Origin: Bispira polyomma
Lineage: Eukaryota
NCBI GenBank assembly: GCA_965649765.1
Contig: OZ287756.1
Span: 31,868,001 to 31,932,000 of the forward strand
Direction of reading: 5' to 3'
Length of the DNA: 64,000 nt
Positions 6,960 through 50,879 of this stretch are shown in pieces (the stretch's first letter is position 1; the number at the start of each line of letters is the position of its first letter). The notes beneath the pieces are model-generated. The model saw only the letters and a list, made by a program, of their open reading frames with translations, did not search any database and was not told the origin of the DNA. The position numbers and the translations under genes were made by a program.

Positions 6960-8979
6960 CAGTGATTATGCATAATCAGGGAATACGGGTATTCACTGTT
7001 TTGGTCAGGGAATACGCGTATTCCCTAAAATTTCCAGGGAATACACATATTCCCTGATATTCCCTGATATTATTAGGTAAATTTAATGTAACAATATGCA
7101 CATGAAATTTTTTTTACATAAAATTAATGTTAAAATATGCACATGATAAAGGTCATAGATTCTTTTAATGAAATGAATTAATTTATGTGTATGAGGGATT
7201 ATACATTTACTGTATTAATATAAATAGAATAAATATTTTTCAAAAATTTAAGTTACAAACCTCATTGGCTTTCCATATGTTAAACTAGAAATCATTTTTA
7301 ACTATTTCTTCAATGTATCAAAATAAGCTGATCTCTCTCATATCATTAAATGATACCTTCTAATCAAGAAATTAACATAAAGATAAAAATAATATTATTT
7401 TAATGCACAGGTAACTCTCAGAATTATAAAGCTGATAGGATTACTTGAATTTGTAAAGTTGATTATTTGAAGTATGAAGCAAAGTATTTGGATGCAATAG
7501 ACTTTTTTCAGATGTACACTTAATTGTAATGGCCTCTCACCTAAATGTTATTTCTGAGATGTGTTTTTTTTTTCATTCAAAGAAACATCAAATACCATTT
7601 AATGTATAAGGATAAATTTTAAAACGCAATTAATCAATTGCAATTTTATGAAGCCCCAACATATTTTGGTTGACATATAAGCCGAAGTGTTTCAGTTATA
7701 TTCATTCCTGATTTAATAATCAGTACCATGGATAGGTCAATTAAAAATCAATTTAAAGAAAAATTTTAAAAAAGGAAGAAAATTGCTAGCTAACCTCCAA
7801 ATTTAAAAACAAGACATGAATACTACCTTTTGACAAAGTAAGTATCTTCTTAACTAGATTACAAAAGTAAAGTTCATATTTAAGATTTACATTTGCTTTT
7901 AAAAATTTCTACTTTTATTTAAAATGTTACATCTCTGTAGATTATGTTTAAATCTGTTTTAAAGGTTTGAATTTGTACAAATTAATCAAATTTCAGATAT
8001 TGTAAAATAATGTTTGACGTTACGATCACTTTTGTATAATTTAAATATTTTTTCTGACTTTTTTTAACTGAGCATAGAATTGAAACTGTATTTTACTTTA
8101 GATAGGAACTATAATATATATATATTTGTTGGTTCAAAGTTGTTTCAATAACGTTTCAAACATTCAAATAACTTTGTTAAACTTAATTTAGGAAATATGT
8201 GTATTTCCTGACGCTCAAATTCTGGGAATACCTGTATTCCCTAAAATTTCCATAACGTTTAATTTTAGGAAATTTTTTAGGAAATTTTAGGGAATTTTTT
8301 TAACTGAGCATAGAATTGAAACTGTATTTTACTTTAGATATGAACTATAATATATATATATTTGTTGGTTCAAAGTTGTTTCAATAACGTTTCAAACATT
8401 CAAATAACTTTGTTAAACTTAATTTAGGAAATATGTGTATTTCCTGACGCTCAAATTCTGGGAATACCTGTATTCCCTAAAATTTCCATAACGTTTAATT
8501 TTAGGAAATTTTTTAGGAAATTTTAGGGAATTTTTTTAACTGAGCATAGAATTGAAACTGTATTTTACTTTAGATATGAACTATAATATATATATATTTG
8601 TTGGTTCAAAGTTGTTTCAATAACGTTTCAAACATTCAAATAACTTTGTTAAACTTAATTTAGGAAATATGTGTATTTCCTGACGCTCAAATTCAGGGAA
8701 TACCTGTATTCCCTAAAATTTCCATAACGTTTAATTTTAGGAAATTTTTTAGGAAATTTTAGGGAATTTTTTTAACTGAGCATAGAATTGAAACTGTATT
8801 TTACTTTAGATATGAACTATAATATATATATATTTGTTGGTTCAAAGTTGTTTCAATAACGTTTCAAACATTCAAATAACTTTGTTAAACTTAATTTAGG
8901 AAATATGTGTATTTCCTGACGCTCAAATTCAGGGAATACCTGTATTCCCTAAAATTTCCTTGATTACACATATCCACTG
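6960..8979. mobile_element. non-autonomous TIR DNA element inserted in a (TA)n tract (Tc1/mariner-like ends)
   Basis: Left end CAGTGATTATGCATAATCAGGGAA; right end reverse complement CAGTGGATATGTGTAATCAAGGAA. TA on both flanks. Absent from the paralogous segment near 29150-29255. Confidence 0.75.
8059..8958. repeat. 236-bp tandem repeat, ~3.8 near-identical copies
   Basis: AACTGAGCATAG recurs at 8066, 8302, 8538 and 8774 (period 236). Confidence 0.97.
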
Positions 8980-11899
8980 TAACATATATATATATATATA
9001 GTTTCTCACTCGTAAGATTATTTTATATGTCACTTCAAACTGCCTGCTCGGCACAAAGTAAAGCAAGAGGTGAAAAAATAAATCCTTTCTCTAACTTTTG
9101 TATCTAAAACTGTGAGTATTATATTCTATAAATGTTTTAGTTTTCCTACCTGTTGAAAAAATGCATAATATCCTGTAAATATTTAAATAATAATATGTCC
9201 TCATTTTGTCTGTTCAAAACACATGTAAAGTTTGAAGCTAATATATCATGTATTACCACTGTAAATATAACTGTGAGTGTGTACAAAAACAAACACAAAT
9301 AAACTCATATATTTGTGTATGATTTATATTTCTGTAGGTAAAAGTTTTAAACTTCCTGCTTAACATAATACCCATTTATTCTCTGCAATCGAACATGACA
9401 CAAAATTGATTAATCTTCCTGCCCTAAATAATAACTTCTTCTATCTGAGTAACACTTAAAAGGTGTGTGCAGAACTAAAAACCATATTTCTAATTCTCCT
9501 GTACAGTTTTATTATCTTCACATCGTATTTGTGTTGATCTGGCCAGGGTCGTTTTAATATGGTATTTTTATCGGCTTTTAGGTGCCAATATACCTGTTCG
9601 ATTTCGCTTTTCGATTCAAAAATATTATTTCACCTTACCGTCCGTCATGGGAAAAAAAATTGGTCTTGGACCGATTTTGAACAATCAGCTCCCGATTAAG
9701 AGGTGGCCTCGATCAGGTGTATCCTACTTCTCTGTTTTGTTAGATTCTTAATTTTTCAGATGACGGAAACAGACGTTGGATGATGGATTTGGAAGTAACA
9801 TCGGACAAGTATATGCTCCTATTTAGCCAATTTTATTCTGTTGAATGTCCTTACTGATTTTCTATTGAAAAAGTATTTTTACATGCTTTTAGTTCTGGCA
9901 ATGATTTTTATCAGAGATGGCTGTAACAATTTGTTTTACACAAAAATATCTCTTGCTAGTTTGTGATATCAAATAAAGTTTTAGTTTTGATGCAACATAT
10001 GTATATGCAACACATTCTTGCATAGTAGTGACAGGAAGAATGGTAAATCACACATATTACCACTGATCACATATAAATGTTCATTTGGGACATTTATTCT
10101 TATTAAAATTAACAATGTTTGTATGGCACCCGAAAGTGAGCATGTAGCAATATGGCATTTATTCACCTCACTGGAGTCAAACGAGTGAGTAAGAATATAA
10201 TTTATTCCTGTTGTTTATACAGCTTCTTGAAGTCCAATTTCAATATGGTGAAATTAATAGATGTAGGTTTGGGTAGTAGAGCTGGAACAAAAAAATAAAG
10301 ATACTTTAAGTTAAGGTCAAGTTTGTGTATATAAAGGGAAATGGGATATCATGAAATATCAGTCAGTTGTAAAAGAGGAATTGAAGGAATAGACGACTTC
10401 ATGAAATTAGAAGCAATGTATTATTTTATTACTACAATGACACTCATGGGTTATTTTTACAGTTATGTCTCTAAGTTTTATGCAGACCGAATATATTTAC
10501 TGGCTAAAATATGTGATTCTTTATAATTAAAAAGTACAGCATATATTTCCTTCAAACATTACATTGGCAGTCTGCAACAATGTACAATGAATTGTAGCTA
10601 TCTAACTTGAATTGCAACATTTTCTTTAATAGGCCCAAAAGGAACCTAGCCTTTCATTTTGTGCTGGTGATTATATTTGTTTCTGCAGTTTTATAGAAAT
10701 AATTTATGCGTTTTATCTGCATTTTATATATGCCTTTGATGTAGCAACTAAAACTGTAACTGTAACTTTTAAAATGAGAAAACAAATTTCTGCGTTGTGG
10801 CAAAAGGCTACGCATAAAATTGTAATGCACTCCTCCATAATCACAAGGCAATGTGAGTCATAACCTTATATATATAGATTTCCCTTGGAGCTGGGTAATC
10901 AGCCTCAAACTGCATGTGCATACCATGCATGTGAAAATGAACACAAATTCATCCAGCACTAAATTCTGACAATATTCAATACAAATCCAAGATCTTCAGC
11001 GATCTTCATGAATTGTGATTAATATTTAGAACAAGAAAGAATAGTCAAAGCTTTGAAAGCAATCCTTTAGTAATATATCTGATACCAAATAGCAAGACAC
11101 TAAATGTTATAACAAGCTGTTAAAACTATATTTATTCTTACAATAATTACAAGATTCAGGTAAATAGGATAGTCTGTTGTTGCTCTTCAGAAAATGCCTC
11201 GTATAAATCAGGCACATTAAAAATGCATAATACAATGCAATATGTTTCAACAATATTGTCAATTCTTCTAAATAATATGCACAAAATAAGAAGAAACAAT
11301 ACAAGAACAACTATAAGTGTAGCTGTTACAATTCTATAGAGCTCTAGTGCAATTAAACAAACAAGTTTATATGTATTGCTTACATAAAGCATTGGTTAAT
11401 TTAGTATATATTTAACGTAAGGTACAAGTCAATGAATTTTTTACATTACCAAAGTAAGTTAACCAAGGCACACAGTCTTGTTCTCACATTCTCAGATTAA
11501 TTATTTTCATATGATTAATATCAAATAATTTCTGTATTTCACATATACAGTTTGTATCACTTTATAATGGGGGATGAAAGCATGACATCTTCACCGATCT
11601 GAAACATTGTTAAAAGGGATTTTGTTGATCATATTATGCTTAAAATATTATTTGGCAGCTTCCTAATACCATTCATGATATAATTAATAGTTCAGGGTGA
11701 CTGTTGATCAAAATATATAGTGATTTTATTTACTGTCACAATAAAAATTCTGCTATCAGAATAAATTAGATTAACTGTTCAATGGCAGAAGCTCCTTACA
11801 TCCGAATATTTAAACTAACATTTTCTACTTGAAAATACATATTGTCACAGTTGCTAACTATGAAACATGCATTTATCAATTGTCGCAAAAATACTATAG

Positions 11900-12846
11900 C
11901 TTAGGGTCGGTTCTCAGCCCTCTACTTTTTACCCTCTACACTTATCCTCTCAGTGCAGTCATCAATAATCACAATGTTAAACATCACATGTATGCTGATG
12001 ACACTCAAATCTATCTCTCTCTTAACCCTCATAATGCCGGAAACAACCTGGATTTATTTGTCGACTGTCTCTCCTCAGTTCAGGCCTGGATAAAATACTC
12101 CAAACTGAAATTGAACCCAGATAAAACTAAATTCATCCTAATTGGCAACAACAAACACAGTGAATACTTAAGATCACTTTTCCCACTCACACTACTGAGA
12201 GATGAGATTCAACCTTCAGACCAGGTAAAAAGCTTAGGTGTCACTATTGATCCCTGCTTTTTCATTTCTTTCTCACATTAACAACATCCGCTGCTCCTGT
12301 TGCTATCACATTCAGGACCTCAAGAATCAGAAATTATGTGTCATTAGATACTGCTATCACTGTGGCCAACGCTCTTGTAAGTGGCTGCCTTGACTACCTT
12401 TCCTGTGTGGAGCTAATAAGTCACACATGAACAAGTTACAGTCCATTAAAAACTATGTAGAGTCATCTTTTGTTTGGAAATCCATACTGATGTCACTCCA
12501 TACCTCAAGAAACTCGATTGGCTTACGGTTCACCATCGAATCCTGTTTAAAATGCACGTAACCACCTTTAGAGCTTTTGACTCTCAACTGCGTCACTACT
12601 TCGCTACAGCCTTCCAGTTGAGCTTTGACTGCTTGAAACACTTTCTGGATTTAGGAGATTGCTTAAAACCTATCTCTTCAGGCTCGCCTATCTGCCATAG
12701 TCGTCTCCTTGGGCGCTGACGCATCCATCCTTACAACCTGGCTATGTTTTTTTAATTTTTCTATTGGCTTATTGATTCTGATGTTTCACCTTAGGAGATG
12801 CCTAGCATCAATAAGGTGCATTAAAAATGTACAATACAATACAATA
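11900..12846 (+). mobile_element. 5'-truncated degenerate L2-clade LINE
   Basis: GSVLSPLLFTLY, HHMYADDTQIY, LKLNPDKT; later part frameshifted; (TACAA)n tail at 12830-12846. Confidence 0.92.
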
Positions 12847-12924: not shown

Positions 12925-13250
12925 ACAAACACTGTGGTAACTAATATAGGTTACATTCAGCTATAAAATAATACAAGAAACTGTGGTAACTAGTATAGGT
13001 TACATTTAACTCTAAAGTAATACAACAACCCGTTATAACTAATATGGGTTACATTCAACATTAATAATAAACAACAAACTGTGATAACCATTATAGGTTA
13101 CATTCAACCTTAAAAATAATACAACAACCTGTTATACCTAATTACAGGTTAATAATTACAAACTGTGATAACTAATACAGGTTACATTTAATTATAAAAT
13201 AATACAACAAACTGAGTTAACTATTACAGGTTACATTCAACTATATTACA
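12925..13250. repeat. 49-bp minisatellite just downstream of the receptor stop codon
   Basis: GGTTACATT recurs at 12949, 12998, 13047 and onward (period ~49). Confidence 0.85.
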
Positions 13251-13482
13251 ATAAACTGACATACATGTTTACTCCCACATTTTAAAAAGTTCAAAATGTA
13301 CAGATTTAGGTTTACAAAGTGCAAACACTCTTTGTGCCTTACGCCTTACAACAATCAAAATAAATGTCTGATTAATAAAAAAAATTTGAGTAATAACTAA
13401 TCAGAGCAGGCATATAGCTACACAGCAAGTAAATTTTTTTAATCAATGCAGTTGTGTTTTACGACATATTTTAACATTAAGC

Positions 13483-13781
13483 TCACATATTCAGTGGGGT
13501 GTGTATTTTGTCAGAAATATTATCAATGCTACCAATTTGTTGGTAGTTAGACTTGTCTTCGTTGTTCTTTACTTCTGCTACATCATGTACATCATCATAC
13601 ACATCCAGCCCATTTGTCCGATGCATTGTGGTCATATTTTGATCATCTACCACAGGGGCATTCTGAGAACTCTTGAGTTTGATCACAATCACCACTGTGA
13701 TGGCAATCATCAAACCCAAAGCCAGCACTGTGCTCACAGCTCCTGCAATAATGGGTGTGCTTGATGGTGTGTCTTCTTTTT
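13483..13781 (-). CDS. terminal exon: transmembrane helix and cytoplasmic tail
   Basis: Acceptor TTTCATCAG, phase 1. EKEDTPSSTP-IIAGAVSTVLALGLMIAITVVIVI-KLK...VYDDV...SNYQQI...stop. Confidence 0.88.
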
Positions 13782-16700
13782 CTGATGAAATTTTTTTTAA
13801 AGGGTTAGTATTACAGTTACTTCTTTTCATATTGGTATCCATTAAACTTGGCTACAAAGTCAAATTCTTCACCATCAAAGTCAGAATACGTTTAATCAAG
13901 TAATGACTGATTATACAAATACAAACTTATCTAGTATTACATAAGTGAACATTATATTGTTAAAAAATGCTTTAGTGGTTACCTATATCACAGAATGATC
14001 CTGTCCAGCCATCCAGACAACCAACCCCACAAATACCGTCTATGTGATCACAGGGGCCTCTACAGTTACCATAACACACAGAAGCACACTTCACGCCAAA
14101 CCCACCAGGAGAACATTCTGAAGTTAATATAAAAACAAAACATATCTAACATAGGTTTATTGTAGCCATTACAACTTCATTCTTTTTCTCAATGCCTTTA
14201 TTTCCTTATGAAAGATATTTGCATTAGAAAATAAGAAAAATATTATGAACAAGAAACGCTGTGTTCAAGGTTTGATTCTAACTGTATAATTTATTTATTA
14301 AGTACTTTAAAGGGAAAATGGAATGGTCAAATTGAAGGAATAGGTTCCAGTTTAATATCTAGAAAACGTCACAAATAAGAACAATAGCCTTTTGTAATGT
14401 GATCTTTTTAATATAATATGTGTATAAGTAAATATTATTAAACAATCAAATACTGTAATGGTAAAATGTATGCATACTTTCACTGCAGGTAAATTCAATG
14501 AATCCAGAGTTACACTTTCCGTCTTCAAAGAATCCAGTTTCTCTATCACAGGGGAAATTTCACAGTTTGGTGAACATGGATGACAGTTGTTACCATAGGT
14601 GTTGTGAGAACATTCTGACATATAATATTATGTTGTCAAGATAGTGGCTCATACACAAAAAGTGAATTATTACTTCCTAATTTCGCAAGTACTAGCAAAT
14701 GAATAACAGAATGGAATAATTTAATTCAAAGTTGCTCCATAGTTCTTAGCTTTATGTATAGTTATATTTAAATATGTGGGTAAGCTACAAGTCTAATATA
14801 GATTATTTATATAATGATTGAGTAAATACTTGCCATTTTTATTGTTGGATTAATAACAAATCCAAGTAATTTATCAACATTTTTTATCAATCACAGAGAA
14901 AGCCAAGGTGATGTCTTTAGAATTATCGATATTTATGAAACATTCAGCCTTGTTTTTATTCAAACGATCTTAGCTCATAACTTAGAAATACTGAAAAGTT
15001 AAAAAAAACTCATATGATAATCACATAGTTAGTGTGTATAAAACAGTTGTCTAAAATGTCACTCTACATTGGGTCTGGTCCAACACGTCGGAAGATATCT
15101 CCACGGGACACTCCCATTGCTCTGCTGTCAAGATAGCATTCTATCCACATAAGTAATAGACCATTATTATTATTATTATTGAAATATTTTATATAGCGCC
15201 TTATTTGATATTTCATCCTCTGGGGCACTCATTCTAGTCCGATAAGAAAGCTTGGGTCATCATCAGTTGAGTATTTGAAGTATGATGGTGCAATACCTTT
15301 TTTAAGTGACTGACTGATGATACTTAGGAAAATATATTTTAATCTTCTGTTATTGGAATAACTTTATCGCCTGTTTGGTTACTTGATAAAAAATGCAGCA
15401 GAAGAGCTAACCAGAACAAGTAACTGTCACCCATTACCAAGGTACATTAACTTGCCACTGGAGTTAGGTACCAAAACTACTGAGGCACCAAATTTTAAAT
15501 GAGATAAGGGACTATGGTGCTGTGTAAGAATTTTACTAATAAAGCCACAGTGAAAGAATCACATATTCAAGATACACTGTGACAGGTTTATTGTGAGATC
15601 ACCTCTTTTAACTGAATACTTTCTGTATTTGTATAGTTATTTCATACATGTCATTGAGTGGTTCTATATATTTCTATTTTGACTCACTTGGTGAACAATC
15701 CTGTCTGGTCTTCCCAGCTATACAACCATCTGTACAGTTTAGCGTGTCTGAAAACTTTTCACACTTTGCATCTCTGCAGTTTTCAGAACATGGTTGACAA
15801 CCTATTCCATAGGTTTTCCCATCACATACTAAAACAAAATGTATGGGGTTTTACATATATCTTCCGTTTAGAGTATACTATCAACCTATCTTCTCCAGTT
15901 CTCCCAGCTATACACCCATCTGTACAGCTCAGTGTTTCTGAAAACTTCTCACACTTTGTATCAGTGCAATTCTCAGAACATGGTTGACAACCTATTCCAT
16001 AAGTATCCCCTTCACATTCTGAAATTGAGAACAGTATATTTGTAGTCATGTGTAGTAGAATGTTTTGTATTTGAGCATTTTGTTGAAATAATAATTCCAT
16101 TACATAAGAGATCAACAATAGATAACATTTTGGATAGTTGACAAAACATTCAGAAATTCATTAGTTGTTTGACAAAAGTACCAGAAATTATAAGCTGTAC
16201 GTTTTCTCAAAAGATAATGCTGAAAAGACATGTATTGCCAATAAAGATGCATTACTGGATCACTGAGTATAAAACATGAATTTAAAAATGTTGCAACTTG
16301 ATTGTAGATTTTAGGATTTACATGCTAGTAACTTTCACAGGTTTACAATGGTAAACTTACAATAGTTAAATTTAATTAATAACATTTTAATCCCCACACA
16401 GGGATATTTCAAAAACACATATAACACAAAAACATAGGACTAGCCAACATTAATGCATAAACAGTTTAAAACAAACAAAATTAAAAAAATAGTGACATAA
16501 AATTTGCACAGAAATCACTGATCTATATGCACAAAATACCCCATACTATTACATTAGAGACAACATGCAAAAAAACGTAACAATGGTATTCATTTAGACA
16601 TTTATAGCTATTTATAGCATTGGTTATAAACATATCATAAAGAGTCATAAATGTATTGGTGCCTTATATGGAGAGCTAAAGTCGCCCCCTTTTCTATGCC

Positions 16701-19700
16701 ATCATTACTGAGAGCTTGCAGCATGTAAACCTGACATACAGGTAAATACAATAATATTGAAATTCAACTTAAACTTTACATAAATCACCGGCACCCTTCA
16801 CCATGTGAAGCGTGAAAGGGAGTTGCGCCCCTTGCCGCCGGATGCTACGGAGTGGGTCAATACCCAGTCTGGTTGCTTGCTGATTAACTAGCTGTTAACC
16901 CCCCTACCCTTACGACCTTGCTATGCCCATGGACTTTACAATTGGATCACTGATTCTGATGTTGCGCTTTAGAAGATGCCTGGCATCAATAAAGCGCGTT
17001 AAAAATACATAATATATAATAATATATAATATATTTAAGTAACAAGCCAACACTTTAAGAAGATTCATATCCTACACCAAATGGTGTCTTATGAATTAGT
17101 TATGTTGGCACTTTTACAAGAATTTGCCAACTTGCCCACAGCCCACTGAGACAGTGTCAGATTGTATGTGAGTTTCTTCCTAGTGGACCCACCAATCCAA
17201 CCCTTGCAGGGCCATCTCAGTTTTGAATCCTTCGTGGTGACTTCTGTATTATTAAATCTACGCAAGGTGGGTTTGCCTTGGGCAAGGTCACGTTAAGCAG
17301 GAAATTCATAGTCCGCCAACTTCCAGGTAATTGTGGCTTGAACGTTTGAGAATGAACTCAAAGTATCTATGTTTGGTATGATCCCATCCCCCTAGAATTA
17401 CTGATCTAACAGTATGGACTTTATTATCAAGAAATTTTGGTGATCCAAGGGGTGCGAACTAGGCATGACTGACTCCCCCTTTTGGGATTCTACAAGGTGT
17501 GAATGTTAAGTTGATATGTCAACTCGGTTTAACCTTATTTTATAGTGACTGGGCACTTCCAACAATTTACGATAAAAGTTATTTACAATAGAATATGTAG
17601 CTTATTTCCTTTTGTTTTGTAGATTCATTTGCAGATCTCTTTGGCTCCAGTGTGAGCAAATTAATCACCAAATCTTTATATAAACCATTTGTAAATATTA
17701 CGTATAATTATAAATAATACAAATATTCCAATAAAAACAATTAAACATAGTTAGAACAGTATTGATTTGTACAAAAATATTTGTATGACAGCATTTGTCC
17801 TGGTGTTGACAGTTTAAAGTACAAATCAAAATGAAGTCCAACAGAAAACGGTTCTCTTGATAGTTATGATGAATTGTGATTGGATGGGAATGAGCGATAG
17901 ACAGAAAGTATTTAAAGTGTAGCAATATGTGAGTATTTTTGTCTAAGGTACTACATCATTTTAGTGTGTGCATTGAAATTGCAGTCCCCTAAAGAGATCC
18001 TGCTGGGTGTATGTATAGTATAACTATTTATGTGAAAATTTTGTTCAAATTTGGATTAATATGAAAAAATATATCCAGCTGTAGGTCTTTCTGTAATAGA
18101 TTAGATATATTACCCTCCGTTCACAAGTTGAAAATTCAGTTCACCAATATATGAAGCCACCAGTTTACATGTATCAATGTCGCAAAACAACTAAAATGTA
18201 CAGACTGCTTATGTTTTTCCTTAAAGAATATACTCCCAGTCTACTTGTTGCAGAAGGCTTATCATGATTAGTTTTTTCATCTCAGCCTGGGCTCTGTCGT
18301 ATTATGGAACTTACCCGACCTAGGGTGGGTTCTAGATGTACACGGCAAAAATGTATAGGCAATGCCAACAGATTTGCTTTAGCCATTGTTCTCTGCTCCA
18401 CTTTAGCCAAGCTTTTTAGCAAGCCAGTGTTGGAAGATTTTTATAGTTTTGACATCTTGTTATTGGTACACTATTCTGCTGTATTATTTAATTTAGTGTA
18501 TCATATTACTAAAGAATTACAGAATTTTGATAACAAATACACATTATATTAAAAGCCTGTTCTAAGAAGTAGAGATAGTATAAGTTCAGATGTACAGTCT
18601 TATAGTAACCTACATTTTTTATAACATTGTAACATCATGGAAGATTGAAAATATATGCATTGCCAATAAAGATGTCAACTATTTTGTATACTGTGCATTA
18701 CCAGGTGACTATGTATAAAATATTCAACAATACATATATTAAAATAAAATATATATTTGTACAGTAAAAACCATGTCAAAAGTGCACCTTAGTACTCTAG
18801 CAATAATTATTCTTTAGTCTGATAAAATACCAAAAGCATGGCCCAAAATTACACATTAGCTCTGTACGGGGGGGAGGGGGGGGGAGGTTTTATTTGTGTT
18901 TCATTCTAAAACAACTTTCTATAATGATATATAGGGGTACTCAATTACAGAATGTTTACACAGAAGTGATGAAGTGATTGTAAATATTTCTGGTGGCCTC
19001 ACCCAGTGCACAGTCTTCTCCAGTTCTCCCAGCTATACACCCATCTGTACATTTCAGTGTCTCACTTCTCACACTTTGTATCAATGCAATTTTCGGAACA
19101 TGGTTTGCAACCCATTCCATAGGTATCTCCATCATATTCTGAAACCGAGTACAATATCATAATAAATTGTAGTCATGTGTAAAATAATTTTGAGTGTTTT
19201 GTTCAAATCAGAATTACATGGTGTAAGATAAATAATAGATAACTATTTGTGATAGTGGGCAAAACATACATGAATCGATAGTTGAATGACAGAAGTGCAT
19301 CTATTCTTCATTGACAGAGTGTTTGTACAGAAGTAATTGTAAACTTTTCTGTTGGCCTCACCCAGTGAACAGTCTTCTCCAGTTCTCCCAGTTATACAGC
19401 CATCTGTACATTTCAGTGTCTCTAAAAACTTTTCACACTTTGTACCTTTGCAATTCTCAGAACATGGTTTGCAACCTATTCCATAGGTATTCCCAATACA
19501 TTCTGAAACCGAGTACAATATCACAGTAAATTGTAGTCATGTGTAGTAGAATGTTTTATGTTATGTTTAAATCAATATTACATTTGCATAAGAGATCAAG
19601 AATATATATAAAAAATTTGGGCAGTGGACAAAACATTCATTAATCCAATAGTTGACTGACAGAAGTACAGATAATATAAGTTCATATGTAAGTCTTATTA

Positions 19701-22700
19701 CAACATATACTATTAGGGATTGAAAATATGTGCATTAAAATTAAAGATGTCAACTATTTTGTACACTGTGCATTAGCAGGTGACTATGTATAAAATATTT
19801 AAGAATACATCTATTAAAATGAAATGTGTATTTATATTGAATTATATACATTACAAAACATATATTGAATTATATACATTACAAAACAAAAACATGTCAA
19901 ACGTGCACTAGTACTCTAGCAAGAAATACTCTTTAGTTCAAGCCTACACTTCCTTTAAGCACATTCCAAGGTGTCCAATTCGAAGGTGTCAAATCTGATC
20001 AGACGTCAACCGACATTGTGCTTTCTTTTATTCGATATATACTTGAAATTAGCTTGGATTACTGGGCTTTTTTTCCACAAAAAATTGTTGAAAAACGACT
20101 GAGATATATACAATCAAATAAGGGTACCTATTTTTACTTCCTGATGTGTAAGTTGTGTACACTAACGTCATTATAACGTTGCTATGCATATCTTTACACA
20201 GGCATGATGAAGTGATTGTAAACATTTATGGTGGCCTTACCAAGAGAGTCTAATTACAATTACAGTAATCTATTTGTTGAATGACAGACGTACCAGAAAA
20301 TATAAGTTAAGATCATAACAGATTGTTTGAAGGTAAATATGTCGAATAGTTTGCAAGCTGGTTGCATTTCTTGATCACTGAGTATAAAATATAAAAGTTT
20401 AAAAAGTTCCAATTTGCTTGCACAGTAATATAGAGCATCTGCAAATTGTTTTCAAAATATTTTCATGTACATTTCCCAAATATATTACATTTCTGACAAC
20501 AGACAAGACCTTGCCATAGCTAATATTCATGCACTTTATTTTTGTAGGAGTTTTCTATCATTATGTCTTAATAATTAGGGTTCGCCATTTGCATTTAAAT
20601 AATGCATCTATTGAAATAAAATATCTATTTCCATTTATATTACAATGTATATATTCAATACAGTACATCCTTCCCTGCCCTTTTCAGATTTTTATTTTTT
20701 TAATTGTTCAGGGAGAGCTAACGAGCAATAATAACTGTCCCACATCCTAGGGGGACACCACCTACTGGGGATAATTACCATAATGCCAGATGTGCAACAT
20801 TTAAATGGTTCATTGGGTGTGCACTATAATCCTTTGCAGGAATGTAATTTGGGGTAAGTTTTGACAATCTGCATAAGGCCGGCATAAGGCCAGCTAGAAT
20901 AGTCCATGCAAAAGCCACACAAGTGTATTACAATAGAAATGTCTACAGCACAACTTCGCTGCGTCATCTACACACAATTTTTTGTCACATGAATAGCCAT
21001 GAGAATATACAGTTGGTGCTATAAAGCATCACAAATGTTACTAAGATATCCAGTCAGCCTTATAGAATACCAAAAACATCTTCAAAAATTACATCAGCTG
21101 TGTAAAGTTGTCTGAGGGTTTATTAGTGTCTATTTGAAACCACCTTCTTAAAATGATAAATTTGATTTCTTCATCTACAGAGTGTTTAAATAAAAGTGAT
21201 ATAGTGATTGTAAACATTTCTGTTTACCTCACCCAATGAACAGTTTTCTCCAGTTCTCCCTGCTATACACCCATCTGTACATTCCAATGTTTCTGAAAAC
21301 TTCTCACACTTTGTATCAATGCAATCCGCAGAACATGGTCTGCAACCTACGCCATATGTATCCCCAAACATTCTGAAATAGAGTACAGTACAAGAATAAT
21401 TTGTAGTCATGTGTAGTAAAATGTTTTGGATTTCAAAATTGTGTTCAAATCAGAATTCCATAAAAAAAGTACGGAAGAGTATGAGGGCCAAGTTTTTTTT
21501 GTTTAGAATTGGCAAGACAGTATCTCAATAAATCGAGCTAATTTAAAAGAATTTTTTTTTTAATTGTCGAGATAATATCTCGATAAATCTAATTTTTTTA
21601 TAATATATTTTATTTTCCAATGTACAATAGTTAATAGCATTGGCATTCTCTATAGTTTAGTAAGGTGACCTCAAAGTCCTTGTGTTATCTATACTCATGG
21701 TTAACTTAATTATGTTAAGGTGGCCTTAACTGCTCGGTCACCTAAAAGTGTAATTAGTAGTAAGTGTTTTAATCTGACTAACCTTTTAGTGATTAAATGT
21801 TAGATGTTAGTGATACAATAAAGTGCTCAAAGTGTCATACGCCTTTCCTTTGTCATTATCTCATAGCACTTGCTTTTCATATCTGGGGTGGCCTGTAGAC
21901 TGAGTTTATGTAAATAAAATGACAAATACTGACCATCTTTGTTGAAATTGACTATTGTTGAAAGCCTGATTAACTACTTTTGACCCTAGCTATGACTGTT
22001 TGTATCTTGCCCTGATTAACTACTTTTGACCCTATGACTGTTTGCTGATTAACTACTTTTGACCTCTATGACTGTTTGTGTCTCGCCCTAATAAACTACT
22101 TTTGACATCTATGACTGTTTGTGTCTTGCCCTGATTAACTACTTTTAACACCATGACTGTTTGCTGATTAAATACTTTTGATCTCTATGACTGTTTGCTG
22201 ATTACCATTTGACCCTATGGCTGTTTGTGCCTGTTTCCATGGTGGCTGTTCAGTTGGCCACTCACACACCTTCCTTTTCCATGGTGGATAATTATCTCGA
22301 TTTATAGAGATAATATGGTGACAATTAAAAATAAATTCCTTTTAATTATCTTGATTTATCGAGATATTATCTCGACAATTCAAAAAAAAAGTTAGCCCTT
22401 ATACTCTTCCTCAGAGATAAACAATAGAAAAAATTTGGGATAATGGACAAAACATTCATAAATCCATTAGTTCAATAATAGTAGTACAGATAATACAATT
22501 TCAGATGTAGGTCTTCCTAGAGCAGATTATCAAAGATTGAAAATACATGTACACTGGTATCATTACCAAGTCACTAAATATACAGTTTTCAAGTTTGAAA
22601 AAGTTGAAAATTGATTGTATACAGGGTAATATTCTGCAAATTGTTTTAAAAATGCTTCCTCCTACAGTTTCCAAATAACTTACAGTTCTGCCAATAGACA

Positions 22701-25700
22701 AATCCTTGCCATATCTAATATTCATATTACTTCATGCACTAGTTTTGTAAAACTTTTCTATTTTTATGTCTCCATAATCAGAGTTGACCATATACATTAA
22801 GAGAATACGTCTATTGAAATATAATATATTTTTCTATTTATATTGAAATGTATATACTTAACACAGTATATCTCTGCTCTGTGTATATTTCCATTTTTTT
22901 AATTATTCAGGAATAGCTAAAGGTAAATCACTCTGCCACTGAGGATAGATACCACAATGCCAAATGTGCAACATTTTACATGGTTGACTGATGAGACACT
23001 ATAATCCCATGCAAGAATGTTACCATCTAGGCAACAGCAAAAGGATAACTTTTTCCAGGTTTTATTTATATTTCATTGTGAAACCACCTCTTTATACTGA
23101 CGACTTTTCGGGTCTGTTTGTAGCTTTTTATACATGTGATTCAGTGATTGTATATATATATTATATTTTTTTCACTAAGTGAACAATCATCTCCAGTTTT
23201 ACCAGCTATACACCCATCTGTACAGATCAGTGTGTGTGAAAAGGTCTCCCACTTTGCATCTGTGCAGTTCTAAGAACATGGTTGGCAGCCTATACCATAG
23301 GTTTCCCCGTCGCATACTGTAACAGAAAGTACAAACATTAATGGGTAAGTGATTCTTCTAACAAAATGCTTCTCTAAGGTTTGTTCATTTTCTGTGAGAG
23401 CAATTAACAGAACATACTTTGACTGTTGATCATAACACTTTTCATGGCTTCCTTCAACCTGGCTGTTATTTTGATTTTTCGACAGGTTTATTGATTGTAA
23501 TGTTGCTCCCTACACTCCCATTTAATCTGTTTGCACTGTTCGGGTGAATTAGCACATTGTATAGATGGCAATGACCCTGTCACCTTAGACTCAGTACTCA
23601 TACCTTTGTACAATGCCTATATTTTAATCAGTATTTGGTACCTGAGTTGCAGTTGTTCCCTCTATGCCCTGCTGTACAACCACCAAAACAGTCATCAGTC
23701 TCTGAGGTCCAGTTACACTGGGGGTTCTGACCACACCCATCACACTGCTGGCCATAAGTGTTGGCTGGGCACACTAAATTAACACATTAATAACTAGTGA
23801 ATATGAAATTTCTTTTCATTTTATTGTTCTTGATAAACTATCCCAATACACTATACTCTTCTCCATTACTCTACCCTCATTGTCTGATACTTTTCAAGGT
23901 AACTGAAGTAGAATGTTAAACAAACTTTAAATACATATATACAATTATTAACAATAAATACAATGCTTATTATACACACTCTTGGCTTATATGTTCATTT
24001 ATTTACTGAATATAAGTGTTACAGTAGGAAACACAAACTCAAAAACAATAATCAACATAGCTTTTACAATAAATATTTGAAATACAATGACATGTTAAAC
24101 TATTTCAATGGTTTCATAGACATGTAACAGATTCAAGTATGTTCTACTGATAGTATATCAAACCATATATTTTTAATGTTAATGTATGACGAAAACACTA
24201 ACCTTCTATTTCTACTTTGCACAAATTTAAAATATTCAAAGAATCGGTACTTCTCAAGTTTTTCTTGATCAATATGTAACTGAAATGCAAAAATAACATG
24301 AAATGTTTTAGTAACTGACTGAATGCACCCATTAACTAACCATCGATTTTAATGCAAAGCAAGACTGCATGCATGAACATAGCTGGACATAGCTTTAACA
24401 TAAAACCAGATAACTGGTGTCATTTTTTACCATTACTTTCACACCTGTTGCTTGCATCATGATTTTATTTTATTCAACAACTTAAATCTATTACAGATTA
24501 CTTCATGTCTGCCTTGTACGCTGGAATGTAAATATGACAGAATAAATATGGTAACAATGTCCTCTATTCAGGATTATACCATAATTAAAATCAGTAGATT
24601 TTGATATTACCACTGGTCTTGCTATAACCATTTAATGTTAGCTTCAATTAAAAGTCAACTCAAAGGTATAATAGTGAATTTGCTATTAGTCTGTACCTAA
24701 TCAATTTTCAGGTGGAAGTACAATATGACACCTTGAACATATAACAAAACAATTTAAAATTAGCTAATCATAATTGAATCAATTGCTATGAATAAATATG
24801 CATACATATATGGTTTGTGACAATATTCATATTTTACTCTCCATTTTGTTATCCAATACTTAAGCTACTGCGACTGACATATCACAAATAATCAGGGACA
24901 TAAAATTCTATTTTTCATTATGACATAATTTTTTTGTCTGCCTAAAATACGCTACTGTAGAAAATAGGTGATACCACACACAGCACTGATAACAAGTTGC
25001 TTTTATCACCATTAACGTCTCCTTTAAATCTACATTTTCACAGATAGTTTGGCATAATAGATTGGACACACAAACAAGTGAAAAGCCAGCCACTAAGTCA
25101 GGTGTCTCAACCCAAAGTTTTTATATCATGATCATCAGATTAAAGCTCCAATTAGGATCACATTATACTCTTTGCATATTTATTGGCTCCTTTTGAAAAC
25201 TGTGCCAAGTTGAAACATTATATGATACCTGATTTGTCATACAATTGTGTTGTTATGCAGTATATAAAAAGTACTTGATTAAACAATTAAACAAAAACAA
25301 AACACATCCCGACAGCTTTTCTTCGTCACAAAGGCAAAATAATTGATGTTTTTAAATATCTGTTTAATTTATTCGGTTTATATGACTAAAATACCCCTAT
25401 TATCTTAATTAAATAATTTCTTAATACAATAAGATGGAAATCCGAACAAAGTACTTAATTAGTATTTACCTAGCCATAATGGGCGATCTGCAATTTATTT
25501 TGTAAATGTCAGAAACTGTATCCTCTCTATAACGACATTCTAACTTGTCTGGTGAATTAGTGTCTGAAGTATTAGACCCATAGACTGTAAACTGTGAAAG
25601 TCTGTATTCTGAAAACAATATATTACAGCATACAAAAATCATTGAAGGCACAACAATTATGATTGAGACAATATAAGGCTCAAATAAGTGACTTAATATT

Positions 25701-26889
25701 TTTGTTAAAAGAATGTGAGTAACTATGTCTACAGCTATGATTTTCTCTCAAAGCGATTTTGACTATCAATTTTTGGTCTATATCAACAACAAAATGTACA
25801 AATAGAAAGATTTAGGATTGAATTTAAAACATGCCTGAAATATTTAATTTGTTTAAAACCCTATATATGTAGTATGTGTTCTTGAATAGAGTGAAAACAC
25901 TATAAAAGTCTAGGTTATTTAAAATGTAAAATGGCAGACACAAGTACTGAAAATACTATCCTAAAAATACTGACTATATTGGAGATAAATCAACTTCTAC
26001 ATACCCGCAGAAGGTCACAAAATAGAATTGTATAACCCTTTATGTTAAAGTTTGAATTTACAACACCCATGTGAGTAAGTGAAACTGCACTTGTAACTCG
26101 TGAAGGTAACAGTTTTTTGTAATACATTCTATGGCTGTATTCACAACGAAGGCACAACATAGATATTAACCTTTGAATTTAAAACACCACTCAAATACAA
26201 AATGTGTCAGGACCATAATACTTTAAACACCATTACAAAATACTAACGGTTGATGTCTCTATTGAAAAATTTCACAGAGTTCACAATAGCTGTTTGTCCC
26301 AAGTCCACCCACCACCAGCCTGGGCCTGAATGTCCATTGGTGTGTGTACAGCAATTATGTCCCATGTCACGTTCATAACAACCATCTATGGCAACAGAAC
26401 TGAGGTATCTATCAGTTCTCCAGTTTGAGGACTGCCCTGTGGTCTTACCAGTTATGTTTAGTCTTACAGGCTCAGAAGTAACTGTGAAAGAACAATAACA
26501 TATGTGGTTAACCTCATATAAGTGTCTTAGTACTAAATGTATAGATATTAGAATTAGTTATAGTTTTAAATACAGTTGAGACCTGGTGTGAAGAGAACGA
26601 AGGACGTATTTATACTTAAATCGGATTTTAAGTTATGTGAACAGAATTGTTTATTTCATATAGTTTATGATAACTCAATAGGGAGTTTTATGAAACAAAC
26701 TTTACCAATCACTACGGGAATGGAAATATTAGTGGAATTTTGGTGCCTGAACTGTATATTAAAACAGTATTGCATCTATAGGTAACTACAATTAACAAAA
26801 TATATGACATTGTTACACTCACCTTTAACAAAATAAACAAGCAAAACCAGATACACAATATAACACTGTAAGTTTCTTTTATACTTCAT
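13483..26889 (-). CDS. multi-exon gene: signal peptide + F-type lectin (FTP) domain + MEGF10/SREC-type EGF repeats + TM + Tyr-motif tail; several stalk exons disabled
   Basis: Phase-consistent GT-AG exons 26823-26889, 26248-26481, 25470-25608, 24203-24279, 19362-19502, 15688-15828, 13983-14117 and 13483-13781 join to 1233 nt (410 aa + stop) when the broken exons are skipped. The gene could instead be a young pseudogene. Confidence 0.8.
13983..14117 (-). CDS. intact EGF-like exon (135 nt, phase 1-1)
   Basis: ECSPGGFGVKCASVCYGNCRGPCDHIDGICGVGCLDGWTGSFCDI; CAG acceptor and GTAACC donor. Confidence 0.9.
14478..14614 (-). pseudogene. EGF-like exon with a -1 frameshift (137 nt)
   Basis: ECSHNTYGNNCHPCSPNCEIS, then a shift at a C4 run to CDRETGFFEDGKCNSGFIEFTCSE. 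One expected Cys is Phe; splice sites are present. Confidence 0.8.
15688..15828 (-). CDS. intact duplicated EGF-like exon (141 nt)
   Basis: CDGKTYGIGCQPCSENCRDAKCEKFSDTLNCTDGCIAGKTRQDCSP; TTTTAG acceptor and GTGAGT donor. Confidence 0.9.
15886..16018 (-). pseudogene. duplicated EGF-like exon that has lost its last Cys and normal donor
   Basis: ECEGDTYGIGCQPCSENCTDTKCEKFSETLSCTDGCIAGRTGED, then homology stops; only ~57 nt separate it from the next exon. Confidence 0.8.
16790..17033 (+). mobile_element. short retroposon with structured GC-rich head and L2-derived tail (copy 1)
   Basis: Near-identical inverted copy at 58722-58946. The 3' part matches the LINE 3' UTR at 12729-12830. Confidence 0.8.
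19003..19138 (-). pseudogene. duplicated EGF-like exon with a 5-nt deletion creating TGA (136 nt)
   Basis: EYDGDTYGMGCKPCSENCIDTKCEK*; first Cys is Tyr; splice sites intact. Confidence 0.85.
19362..19502 (-). CDS. intact duplicated EGF-like exon (141 nt)
   Basis: ECIGNTYGIGCKPCSENCKGTKCEKFLETLKCTDGCITGRTGEDCSL; TTTCAG acceptor and GTGAGG donor. Confidence 0.9.
21233..21372 (-). pseudogene. duplicated EGF-like exon with a 1-nt deletion (140 nt)
   Basis: AA TGT TT- GGG GAT versus AA TGT ATT GGG AAT in the 19502 copy. The remainder (GDTYGVGCRPCSADCIDTKC...) is out of frame with the acceptor. Confidence 0.85.
21473..22410. mobile_element. MITE with long imperfect TIRs and an internal ~30-45-bp minisatellite (21967-22230)
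   Basis: Left GGAAGAGTATGAGGGCCAAGTTTTTTTT; right reverse complement GGAAGAGTATAAGGGCTAACTTTTTTTT. It interrupts intron sequence that is contiguous in the sister copy at ~16090-16125. Confidence 0.85.
23176..23316 (-). pseudogene. duplicated EGF-like exon (141 nt) with an in-frame TAG
   Basis: VCDGETYGIGCQPCS*NCTDAKWETFSHTLICTDGCIAGKTGDDCSL; stop at 23270-23272, one Cys is Trp, weak donor GTGAAA. Confidence 0.88.
24203..24279 (-). CDS. F-type lectin domain, C-terminal exon (77 nt, phase 2-1)
   Basis: YILIKKNLRSTDSLNILNLCKVEIE resembles the FTP C-terminal YV...L.LCEVEV pattern; phases match both neighbouring exons. Confidence 0.8.
25470..25608 (-). CDS. F-type lectin domain, middle exon (139 nt, phase 1-2)
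   Basis: QYRLSQFTVYGSNTSDTNSPDKLECRYREDTVSDIYKINCRSPIMA; TTTTCAG acceptor and GTAAAT donor. Confidence 0.85.
26248..26481 (-). CDS. F-type lectin domain, N-terminal exon (234 nt, phase 1-1)
   Basis: ...TGQSSNWRTDRYLSSVAIDGCYERDMGHNCCTHTNGHSGPGWWWVDLGQTAIVNSVKFFNRDIN, with fucolectin motifs QSS, AIDG, CTHT, WWxVDLG and NR. Confidence 0.92.
26823..26889 (-). CDS. first coding exon, signal peptide (67 nt)
   Basis: MKYKRNLQCYIVYLVLLVYFVK, then a G|GTGAGT phase-1 donor. Confidence 0.85.
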
Positions 26890-28619: not shown

Positions 28620-28970
28620 ATTCTACAATGTTTTAATTACAGAAAATGTACAGTGCACACATATTCCACAATGTCACAACTACAGTAAATGTACAATGCA
28701 CACATATTCCACAACATACTAACTGCTGGAAATGCACAATGCATACATATTCCACAATGTCATAACTACGGAAAATGCACAATGCACACATATTTTACAA
28801 TGTCCCAACTACAGAAAATGTACAATGCACACATATTGCACAGTGTCCCAACTACAGAAAATGCACAATGCATACATATTCTACAATGTCGCAACTACAG
28901 AAAATGTACAATGCACACATATTCCACAATGTCTCAACTTCAGAAAATGCACAATGCACACATATTCTAA
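28620..28970. repeat. 43-bp minisatellite (~8 copies)
   Basis: AAATG(C/T)ACAATGCA recurs at 28687, 28730, 28773 and onward. Confidence 0.92.
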
Positions 28971-32299: not shown

Positions 32300-33150
32300 A
32301 ACATATTTCAGGGAATGGAGAGGATGGTGGGGTACAGGATACAGAGACACACACCCTAGTACAGGAAAGCAGTGACACATCAATACAGTACTCTTTCGTA
32401 GTGGACTGGTCAACCATAATCATAGTTTGTGCCATAAGTTTGCCAGACCATCATCAACCAGTCCCAGACAGAATTCCTCACATTCCTCCCCGTTGACTGA
32501 AATAAGTCAAGTCCATGTTCCATTAATGGCAAACGCATTGCTATGAGATACCCGAGAAAAGGTGAGAGCGAGCTCTTCAGCTACAAGGGGTACCACTCAA
32601 TCGTCCTGGTAGATGGGATTATCGTTTCCTGTGAGTCGACAAAGATTCAAGCTGCTCATGCTCAGATGCCCATATTTTTAACAGATCCCAACTGAAGGAG
32701 AAAATAGAGGACCACTAAATCAACTTCCCCCCACTAAAACTATTAGCCCCGTCAGAGTCCATGTCCTCTACGTCATCCTAGGAGATGAGGCATTTGCCCT
32801 AAAGACATGGTTGATCAAACCCTACTCCAGACGGGGGATGGACATGAACGTAAGGTCATACAATTATGCATTTGGGATTTTAGTCCAGAGATTTTGGGTC
32901 CTTCTGTCAATAATGCAGCAGGAGCCACCAGTGGTGGTCACCTGTGCTTTAGCATACGTGGTCCTGCACAATGTGATAAGGACCGCAGCCATCAATATGG
33001 CTAATTCAGGTAATCCAGAAGAGGACCCACCTGTCCCACTGATAGCAGCACGTGTCGGAGGAAACAACCCACCCAACTGAAGAAATCCCAGCAGGGCAGC
33101 AAAAGAACAGAGAGAGCTACTCATGCAATATTTCACCAATGAGTGCCCTG
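32300..33150 (+). mobile_element. PIF/Harbinger DDE transposase (HARBI1-like) fossil
   Basis: Frameshifted motifs NGKRIAMRYP...FSYKGYHSIVL, CSDA, SQLKEKIE, YVILGDEAFALKTWLIKPYSRR, AFGILVQRF and VLHN. Confidence 0.88.
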
Positions 33151-33606
33151 GTAAAACGACATTTGAGTCTACACCTGAGCCTGAGCCGAAAACAAACATG
33201 AAAGGCCTTTTTCAAGGCCACTCAAAACATTCAAAAAGAATGTTAGAGCTGTAAACATAAAAACCCCTCACAACAAGAAGCATACTGCCCCGACAAAAAA
33301 TATTGCCACAACCTGTAAGACAAATCGTAAGATAAGTCATACGGCCTCTCTGATAAATCGTTAACATTACGAGCGATTGCCCCATTTGGGACTGCTGAAG
33401 GAGGAGAAGGAGAGACTGGCGTCTACATGTTAGTGGTTGTAGTACTCGTTTGTGATTACTTAGGACCAATTTGGTTTAGGTGTTTTCTGTGCATCTGGAT
33501 TAACAGGTGTGAACGGCTCAGGAGTGTCTATGTTCTGGCAGCTGAGACTGTCAGTCACTGATTCAAAGAGATGAGGCTTTCAAGGGATTCAGTATGTCTG
33601 ATACTT

Positions 33607-34512
33607 TCACTGATGCTGGGTTTGTGTACTGGTGGCTGGTGCTTGCAGATTATATAATAGATGGTGCAGTGTGTGGCACCTAGACTGTTGACTGAGGCAT
33701 GACAGGTGAGGACTGAATAGGTTGTGGCACTCTTCGCTGGGATTTCTAGTAGATATACTGTTGTTGTTGCTGTTGGGTACAAAGGTGGGTTGAGGCATCT
33801 GGTATTGCATCTTGGGTTGTGTCTTATACTGCTGATGCTGTTGGAACTGTGGCACTGCTTGTGCTGTGGTCGTCCGGTATTGGATAGTACTCACAAGGTT
33901 GAATGCCTCCCTTCTGAAGTGGTTAAAATGTTCATCTGGCAATTTGTTGCCCCCTCGAAGTTCGGGGTTGATCTGGCACACACCAAAGACTGCTTTGAAG
34001 TACTCCCAGGGGATGCTATCAGCAAGGAAGACTCCATCTCTGTTTCAGCTCCCTGGTCTGTGTCTATCTGGAACCACATCCCGGAAGTTGGTAATTCTCT
34101 GGGAGCCATGGACAAAGAGGCGGATGCGACGGATCTGATGGTCTCAAGACATGTTGTATGATGTGAGGTTTCAAAAAGTCAAAGGTGTACTTGACCTAGT
34201 TCTGCCTCTCTGTCAGGTATTGCCTGGCCGGATTTCTTGATGCTCAGCTTACCTCTGTGATTGAAACCACTTCAGAACTCTAGCCACAACATGTCTGTAG
34301 CCTTGGTTTCTGTGTATTTTGGATCTCATTTTTGTTTTACCATTCTTTGTCCCACAAAAGTCCATCAGTGCCTCCTCCTCTGCGTCTCTGAACATGACTG
34401 TACGCATCTTCCCCTTTTTCTGTTTCCTTAATATGGAAGCCACATATCTTTTTTCATCTGTGTCAGCATTATCCTTCAGATAAGGCTCCTGAGTTCCCTC
34501 CTGCTCAATCAC
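33607..34512 (-). mobile_element. convergent second ORF of the Harbinger element (MADF/SANT-like partner), decayed
   Basis: FRDAEEEALMDF, LKWFQSQR, LTERQN*VKYTFDFLKPHI and C-terminal FRREAFNLV. The tail-to-tail layout with the nuclease fits Harbinger elements. Confidence 0.65.
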
Positions 34513-34910
34513 CGGGTCTGTGAATGTTGTGTCCCAGACCTGTCTTTTTCATTGGAGCTTCCCTAATGACTTACCCTTTGTTTCCCCCAAATTATCTTTT
34601 CAGTCGGGGGTAAACAAAGGATTTATCTTTACCAAATGACACAATAACTCAGGTTTGGGGAAGGGGGGTTAAAAGGATAACTCGTAATGGCCCTCGACCT
34701 ATCTTTTTTTTGGGGGGGAAACATTTATTTTTAACATTTATAGGCCCTCGACCTATCTTTGTGATGGAAAGATAATCAGATGAATTTTCAAACAATTTAG
34801 GGGAAGATTGAAAAGATAAAGGTCTTAAGAAGGTATTGATAAATCGTAAGTGGGTTACGATTGGCCTAGATTTACCCCAATTAATCGGCTGGGCCAACAA
34901 ACTTAGACCC

Positions 34911-49670: not shown

Positions 49671-50879
49671 TTCAAAGGCAGTATATACAGAAAACCTACC
49701 AGCAAGGGTGACCTAAAAATAAAAGAAATATAAATACATACACTACTAAACGGTAGAACCTATAATATCAGATAACTGAAGGTTAATAATATAGAATATA
49801 GGTACTATAGTATGAAAAAATAGAATAATGCAAATTTGAGAGAGTAAAGTGTTATTGAATATTCGGAGAGCAGATATTGTACTGTATGTGTATCATGTAT
49901 GTATTGGTTCTTGTATGGGTGAAAACCTATACAAGGATTGTTCAACTGTATGACACAAGTGAAATATATAACCATGTCACAAGCACTCGTTCATTAATAT
50001 CGGATGTACACAATGATAAGTCTGTGAATTGCTTTGTTTTTGCTTGTATTATCGTTTGTCCAGACACATTCTTTCCAAGTGGCAATCACATGACAAGTCA
50101 CTTAACACTTTATGCAAATTGCTCGTTCCTGTTTTGAAGCAATGACTTCCATATTTTTAAAGAACAAAGTGACTGATTTGAAAACTGCTGGATAATGTTG
50201 CCAATAACACCAATTATTTTGCCCATTAATTCCCCATTGACATAAAGGTACCCTGAACTGACAATAAAAAGTAATAAAACTTCCAACTTTTTATCTATTT
50301 ACCCAAATTGAAACAGTGAATATCTGTTTGTAGCAACATCTATTTATAACAAAGTTTTGTTGAAACAATTATTATAATATCATTACTTATATAATACGAT
50401 AAAATTATTTGTGTCTACTTTATTGTTAAATTTATATGTACAGTCCTTTACAAGGTGGGCATCGATTGGTACCCGGATACCAGTCAGGACGCCACCAAAG
50501 CACAACGCCACCCCATAATGCCACCACCATTAATAAGCAGAGTCCAGCTTTATTTTCTTAAATAGATTACATGTGTAGTGGCTGTATATTGTACACCCAA
50601 CTTGTATACTCCAGCAAATATTACCGTCATTGCTACATTAAACAATATTTAAATGCACAGTCATTGGAAACTGACAAAGACGTATTTATTTTGGTAGATT
50701 TTTAAACTGGCCCGTCATTGCTCCATTAAACAATATTTAAACGAGAAGTTTACGGAAAATGCTGATAAGCCATATTGTGGTTTCTACTTTACAATATACT
50801 TAATAAACCATTTATTAAAGACCGAGATAAATATAGCTATTTTCAGGGACTTCTGTTAATTGCTTCCTTCAAATTCAAG

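Follow-up and report, generated by a model that had tools for sequence, protein, structure and literature searches.

Organization of the lectin receptor gene

The 64,000-nt stretch analyzed here (the window; C9:31868001-31932000, on contig OZ287756.1 of the Bispira polyomma assembly GCA_965649765.1) carries on its minus strand a gene for a putative lectin receptor, referred to below as the focal gene. Coordinates are window positions unless C9 is stated, and all focal exons lie on the minus strand. From 26889 down to 13483, the gene consists of a signal-peptide-type exon, three lectin exons, nine Cys-rich exons, and one exon for a transmembrane (TM) segment and the tail. The signal-peptide-type exon closest to the lectin exons (type A; 26823-26889) provides 22 codons and ends in phase 1. 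It is followed by the lectin exons L1 (26248-26481; 234 nt, phase 1-1), which belongs to the F-type-lectin/galactose-binding fold family, L2 (25470-25608; 139 nt, phase 1-2), and L3 (24203-24279; 77 nt, phase 2-1). The last exon (13483-13781) is open to a TGA and encodes a short cytoplasmic tail with two tyrosines (YDDV and YQQI); the TM call rests on a hydrophobic segment in this exon. The signal, lectin, and TM/tail exons are all open and their phases match, as an earlier reading of the sequence alone (the original prediction) had described. Two further open leader exons are located upstream, an extra type A copy at 31020-30954 with the phase-1 donor GTGAGT and a type B exon at 29375-29321 with the phase-1 donor GTATAA. 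In paralogs E and K, which are described in a later section, no open leader other than type B was found.

The Cys-rich exons, labeled as epidermal growth factor (EGF)-type because of their Cys pattern, comprise E0 (23642-23773), six copies of a 141-nt phase 1-1 exon (cassettes R1 to R6), and the single-copy exons E7 and E8 (13983-14117), the latter being open with 8 Cys. All six cassettes of the original prediction were found, and the eight EGF exons that it counted are present. However, it overlooked a ninth, E0, which is open, phase 1-1, flanked by AG/GT, and found after the lectin exons in every mapped paralog. With E0 included, the predicted product of skipping every broken exon is 454 aa instead of 410 aa, the latter value being exact for the exon set then considered, and the junction 24203>19502 given for it is wrong, with 24203>23773 expected since E0 intervenes. 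E0 also qualifies the claim of an intact core: the core has no stop or frameshift, but it is not clean, as focal E0 is 6 nt shorter than its paralogs and this in-frame deletion takes out a conserved Cys.

In database comparisons, L1 matched the F-type lectins FBP32 (3cqo, E 8.9e-12) and 1k12 (E 9.8e-07) and scored 29.7 bits against PF22633 (cut-off 27.8). Its best named matches are fucolectins, its best single-domain hits (51-63% identity) are unnamed, and none of the 882 hits (E<=0.001) of a profile-free search was a close named relative. Judged by the 7 members for which a phylum is recorded, the nearest Atlas cluster is mostly molluscan. By sequence similarity, L1-L3 can thus be assigned as a putative F-type lectin domain. 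A weak search of L1 against longer proteins, with 15 candidates, had no hit, and a profile of the family's EGF exons was matched by 2 of 180 proteins taken from the L1 hits. The fucose-binding motif HX24RXDX4(R/K), as given in the available part of PMC5712786, is not present in the focal gene. Its binding site keeps the His (present in 13 of 14 aligned rows) and two Arg; 27 residues separate the His from the first Arg, the other Arg is found at +6, and the residue at +2 is not acidic (R-D-I-N-Q-Y-R). It is therefore predicted to be a variant site. The cation motif h2DGx (x = N, D, or S) reads AIDGC, with h2DG present and Cys at x, as in 11 of 14 rows. In the stalk, 70 of 76 open R exons encode 8 Cys; single stalk exons gave no Pfam EGF match, and their only match was to DSL, for E8 (E 0.086). 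By exon order, the predicted layout is a signal peptide, a lectin domain, Cys-rich EGF-type repeats, a single TM helix, and a short tail.

Lesions in the stalk exons and their consequence for the reading frame

The five lesions listed in the original prediction are all present in the sequence. Splice sites were scored with a home-made matrix built from 116 open exons of the same family, to which the percentiles below refer. R1 (23176-23316) has a TAG at codon 15 and one Cys>Trp change, with a strong acceptor and a weak donor (GTGAAA, 9th percentile). R2 (21233-21372) carries a -1 frameshift in codon 2 between an acceptor at the 91st and a donor at the 83rd percentile. R4 (19003-19138) has a 5-nt deletion leading to a TGA, and its first Cys is changed to Tyr. 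R5 (15890-16018) retains a strong acceptor but its last 12 nt and the donor are deleted, fusing the exon to the intron just before R6; read-through to the R6 donor (331 nt) meets a stop. The fifth lesion lies in E7 (14478-14614), where a -1 frameshift near 14555 is accompanied by a Cys>Phe change. E7 is not among the duplicated cassettes: it is a 138-nt single-copy exon, intact in all eight cluster paralogs that carry it, and the focal E7 donor, weak across the family, is the same as that of four intact paralog E7 exons. The remaining cassettes, R3 (19362-19502) and R6 (15688-15828; acceptor tract shortened, 24th percentile), are open with 8 Cys. That all five lesions fall in EGF exons carries little weight as evidence, with p = 0.082 by length over all nine EGF exons and p = 0.024 for R1-R6 plus E7, a set chosen after the fact.

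The original prediction called for read-level validation of each lesion. We aligned contigs of three public runs (two samples of one study, one of which may be the source of the assembly itself; none of the runs is recorded as RNA) to 13400-16950. In each of the three runs, one gap-free contig spanning E7 carries the deletion, which confirms this lesion, also in the second sample, whereas no listed contig among those aligned to this interval shows the R5 junction. R5 is a clean deletion when compared with paralog introns.

Default splicing of the focal gene would lead to a stop after 224-231 aa, in R1 or R2, far upstream of the last junction. Inclusion of R1, R2, R4, or E7 in any combination causes a premature stop (15 of 15 patterns, ending at 224-364 aa). 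The splice sites of R2 and R4 rank at the 75th-91st percentile of the 116 open family exons, the scored sites of R4 are identical to those of R3, and the E7 frameshift, like those of R2 and R4, lies in an exon with working-looking splice sites. Under canonical splicing, the gene therefore ends in a premature stop, one mark of a pseudogene. The statement in the original prediction that the gene is alive is not supported, given that all 15 inclusion patterns stop early and the sites of R2 and R4 equal those of R3 in strength or are identical to them.

A tandem cluster of paralogs

A genome-wide search gave 50 matches for L1, of which 23 are full-length at >=63% identity, and 16 for the TM exon, all on C9. 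Mapping of all exon types on 80 stretches of 10 kb revealed a tandem cluster at C9 31.39-31.90 Mb with 12 loci, including the focal gene, in a common exon order. Four loci are fully open, namely A, B, D, and, via a type B leader, E. The others are damaged to different degrees. In F, L1 is frameshifted (-8); in H, L3 contains a stop; and C is without L1 and L2, its tail being interrupted by a stop. Both K and H are without E7 and E8, with a frameshift downstream of the TM helix. J, which is related to D, is fragmentary and partly inverted, and I has AAG in place of ATG in the sole leader found. In G, for which no leader was found, the TM acceptor is AA instead of AG, with an in-frame AG 6 nt further on. 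Gene death is thus common in the cluster, because several loci are broken in core exons. Loci at 32.2-33.0 Mb and on C8 and C1 share lectin, E0, and R exons with the cluster. For loci outside 31.39-31.90 Mb, TM exons were not found in the 80 mapped stretches, and their cassette counts are therefore lower bounds.

Several features of individual loci were recorded in the course of this mapping. An open type B leader in the window (9204-9150, minus strand) probably serves as the first coding exon for the next paralog along, K; the L1 of that gene is ~12.8 kb away, just beyond the window start. K (C9 31854866-31854619) and H (C9 31646215-31645970) have a ~50-nt deletion after the TM helix in common; apart from this, K is open and its product would be a receptor almost without a tail, while H is broken. 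At C9 31729973-31731989, a segment of paralog D (E0-R-R-R) is present as an inverted copy beside a TM exon, with one broken cassette identical to that of D. The locus at C9 32909684-32850023 has two leader exons, two tandem lectin+E0 modules, and 12 open cassettes, and its 3′ end was not found. A second, remoter cluster at C9 61.4-62.5 Mb contains ~14 L1-like exons (39-51% identity), several of them with stops.

Birth and death of the 141-nt exon across the family

Across the family, we obtained 103 R-type hits in 23 loci, 97 of them outside the focal gene. Two automatic labels were corrected by hand, so that a fragment from the 5′ end in E and, in I, the 3′ half of a copy that has been split count as dead without a proper site. 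Among the 97 non-focal copies, 74 are open, 22 have lost the acceptor or the donor, and one, in gene G, has a coding lesion (a frameshift) with both sites kept, its donor being weak. Open copies range from 1 to 12 per locus, and at least one dead copy was found in 17 of the 22 other loci (23 dead copies in all), including the otherwise open paralogs A, D, and E. The reading frame remains open in 8 of the 22 copies with a lost site, which fits splice-site loss coming first.

Births are visible as well. Paralog E contains three near-identical copies and the C8 locus X8c three identical ones. In a tree built from 71 of the 103 copies, without the partial and divergent ones, in which many forks are unresolved, focal R2-R4 form a supported clade (97/87) and have intron flanks in common. 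The nearest copies of R1, R5, and R6 lie in other genes, indicating that not every cassette arose in place. Copies arise within genes along with the flanking intron, and because the cassette is phase 1-1 and a multiple of three in length, it can be gained or dropped without a frame shift. Duplication also affected the leader, L1, L2, L3, E0, and the whole lectin module, with partial or asymmetric copies present only as remnants. Exon-level birth and death of EGF cassettes, as put forward in the original prediction, is thus supported, by paralogs that were outside its view. Separately, 5′ pieces of L1, L2, L3, and R exons, acceptor included, occur upstream of intact exons at C9 31687859, 31410816, 32959524, 32890471, 32889418, and 31531006.

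The focal gene differs from its relatives in how its cassettes died. Three of its four dead cassettes keep both AG and GT and one does not, and two have sites as strong as those of an open cassette, whereas in the other loci one dead cassette kept both sites and 22 did not (Fisher p = 0.005; 0.010 after collapsing duplicated events).

Sequence constraint on the focal gene

As a stand-in for branch-specific dN/dS, we counted nonsynonymous and synonymous singletons (N:S). The open core of the focal gene gave 15:2 (ratio 1.6-2.0), whereas the pooled count for paralogs A, B, D, and E was 36:16 (0.5-0.6). These counts are compatible with neutrality and purifying selection is not seen, although the contrast is not significant. 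The lectin and E0 exons of the focal gene gave 5:1. In the broken exons, the counts were 6:5 for R cassettes and 4:1 for E7, at low power. For R exons in general (56 of 103 copies, the full-length ones from 14 loci), N:S was uninformative, at 6:5 in focal dead, 4:1 in focal open, and 61:24 in open copies of open genes. The expectation that the core would be under purifying selection and the broken cassettes neutral was hence not borne out, within this low power. Private amino-acid changes at conserved columns were more frequent in the focal gene (24 of 252) than in any of the remaining 15 rows (0.9-7.5%). Losses of conserved residues affect L2 (G>R and S>I, both in columns that are otherwise invariant), L3 (E>K within the C-E-V-E-I motif), and E0.

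Interpretation of the focal locus

On this evidence, we consider the focal locus to be probably a young pseudogene in a living tandem receptor family. The 141-nt exon is duplicated within genes and is likely lost via splice-site mutation. In a living gene, the death of a cassette would require that it leave the mRNA first, by site loss and constitutive skipping, leaving the stalk one unit shorter, and the skipped cassette could decay afterwards. A frameshift in a cassette that is still spliced would instead kill the gene, and the default focal mRNA, with its stop at 224-231 aa, would likely be degraded. The focal gene is probably the least functional example of the family, and exon turnover is better seen in its neighbors. 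Intact members would be glycan-sensing surface receptors with a stalk length presumably fixed per gene or allele rather than regulated by splicing; an immune role may be proposed from likeness to Biomphalaria receptors only.

Several observations weigh against the pseudogene interpretation. The signal, lectin, E0, E8, and TM exons (~1,080 nt) are without a stop or frameshift, compared with five lesions in the EGF exons. The R1 donor is weak, the E7 donor is weak family-wide, and K and H lack E7 and E8 altogether. According to the available part of PMC6288254, exon 3 of macaque KIR1D, which bears a 5-bp deletion between intact sites, undergoes constitutive skipping; by analogy, intact splice sites would not preclude skipping. 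The splice matrix is home-made and was trained on the family under study, and a few of the "site lost" calls concern divergent, partially aligned copies whose boundaries could be off. The core N:S contrast is not significant (Fisher 0.11). Moreover, the open paralog D gave 10:2 (ratio 1.1-1.3) and the clear pseudogene F 16:9 (0.4-0.5), and because of these values the N:S test barely separates live from dead genes. Finally, the contig evidence reaches only part of the lesions, with R1, R2, and R4 standing on the assembly.

The foremost alternative is that the gene is alive and skips the five damaged exons, giving a 454-aa receptor composed of signal, lectin, E0, R3, R6, E8, and TM. The frame of this product is open, three open leader exons lie upstream, R5 has no donor and those of R1 and E7 are weak, dead cassettes also occur in the otherwise open A, D, and E, and the KIR exon is a precedent for skipping despite intact sites. 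However, this would require that R2 and R4 be skipped while R3, with equal sites, is kept, and only 1 of 23 dead cassettes elsewhere retains both sites. The core, moreover, bears no signal of purifying selection and has lost conserved residues in L2, L3, and E0. We therefore regard a gene kept alive by skipping as unlikely.

A somewhat less probable alternative is a short secreted lectin of 224-231 aa (signal, lectin, E0, and a stop in R1 or R2), whose transcript would evade decay by polyadenylation in the next intron. Default splicing yields this product, the lectin exons are open with the binding-site His and both Arg kept, and AATAAA/ATTAAA hexamers occur downstream of R1. Such hexamers (nine in 2.3 kb) would, however, be expected in DNA of 33% GC, and the lectin and E0 exons lack a signal of purifying selection and bear private changes at invariant residues, all of which makes a secreted product quite improbable.

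It is more improbable still that the lesions mark a null haplotype, with intact alleles of other cassette numbers segregating. Biomphalaria clusters do vary between haplotypes, including loss of EGF repeats (as described in part of PMC12297450), and in run X3 the depth of the E7 contig (65) is roughly half that of the contigs beside the TM exon (134-140), although contig depth is no copy number. Against this stand the same E7 deletion in the second sample and the five lesions together with the core changes, which suggest more than a recent null allele. The sole contig with the extra E7 base has ~3-4x the depth of the deletion contig, a multi-copy depth, and carries a base found in several paralogs.

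Assembly errors in a repetitive region are the least credible source of the lesions: the single-base losses in R2 and E7 do adjoin short homopolymers, but the E7 deletion is in contigs of all three runs, the R5 deletion is clean against paralog introns, R1 and R4 bear additional Cys losses, and 74 of 97 cassettes elsewhere in the assembly are open.

The pseudogene interpretation concerns one member, and a bolder idea can be formulated for the whole family, which we put forward as doubtful. An EGF-exon ratchet might tune receptor reach through in-frame duplication, splice-site silencing of cassettes one by one, and parallel leader turnover, with genes like the focal one staying alive by skipping cassettes with strong sites or as secreted lectins. 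If true, this would create an invertebrate receptor repertoire graded by stalk length (1-12 units) within and between individuals. The cluster itself gives a testable rule for clusters of this kind, namely that dead cassettes in live genes are without a splice site, whereas frameshifts with intact sites mark dead genes. Such a rule would aid their annotation.

Comparison with known systems

Symmetric phase 1-1 EGF exons duplicate in frame in class 1-1 module exon shuffling, and paralogs duplicate and die in the birth-and-death evolution of multigene families. The cluster described here does not differ in kind from either but shows many intermediate stages together; as all ingredients are known, it is a further case of a known process. 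Our literature search, with subscription papers and supplements outside its scope, found no account of exon-level turnover in lectin-EGF receptors.

That an F-type-lectin/EGF/TM architecture is already known in invertebrates, as the original prediction noted, is confirmed by Biomphalaria, where loss of EGF repeats has been reported as well. In the part of PMC13712769 that was available, the layout of subgroup 1B of the scavenger-F-like receptors in LG5R equals that of the focal family. These SCARF/MEGF-like proteins likewise combine a signal peptide with a galactose-binding/fucolectin domain, several EGF-like repeats, a single TM helix, and a small tail, and they occur as clustered paralogs with many fragments. 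A difference is that no phosphatase domains were found here. The likeness is by layout, and the sections of these sources at hand give no description of turnover at the level of exons or of loss of splice sites. Receptor clusters with this architecture lie, according to the same partial sources, under schistosome-resistance peaks in Biomphalaria. For the SudRes1 MEGF/GBD cluster, the available text of PMC12297450 notes EGF loss between haplotypes without an exon-level explanation. The present cluster suggests a route, in which an in-frame EGF exon is copied and then silenced by one splice-site change.

Two further systems show related behavior, as far as the available portions of the sources go. 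In the KIR lineage III, a tandem immune-receptor family, pseudoexon 3 encodes an extracellular domain and stays in the gene while being dropped from the mRNA, which shortens the receptor (PMC3504360, PMC6288254). The KIR case involves Ig domains and a single fixed pseudoexon whose sites are intact, as demonstrated with cDNA, whereas ours concerns a tandem EGF cassette of variable number, seen in the genome sequence, whose dead copies have mostly lost a splice site. Oyster bindin (PMC5712786) is, like the focal gene, an F-type lectin family gene in which repeat number varies by exon duplication. However, bindin is a single-copy gene with 1-5 lectin repeats produced by alternative splicing, whereas here the EGF stalk differs among paralogs.

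Other features of the window

On the minus strand at 48351-49712, a stop-free frame of 454 codons encodes armadillo repeats (PF00514, E 5e-12). Remnants of LINE-type reverse transcriptases are located at 1-1038 (PF00078), 3364-4188, and 11814-12716. A GC-rich block at 32682-34548 has frames on opposite strands and a faint match to DDE_Tnp_4 (E 0.086), and we take it to be possibly a decayed PIF/Harbinger-type element. By eye, frames at 62638-63797 (minus strand) resemble pieces of a tyrosine-recombinase retroelement. Tandem repeats and minisatellites of varied unit lengths occupy 8050-8960, 12929-13248, 21965-22232, 28640-28970, and 54000-54770.

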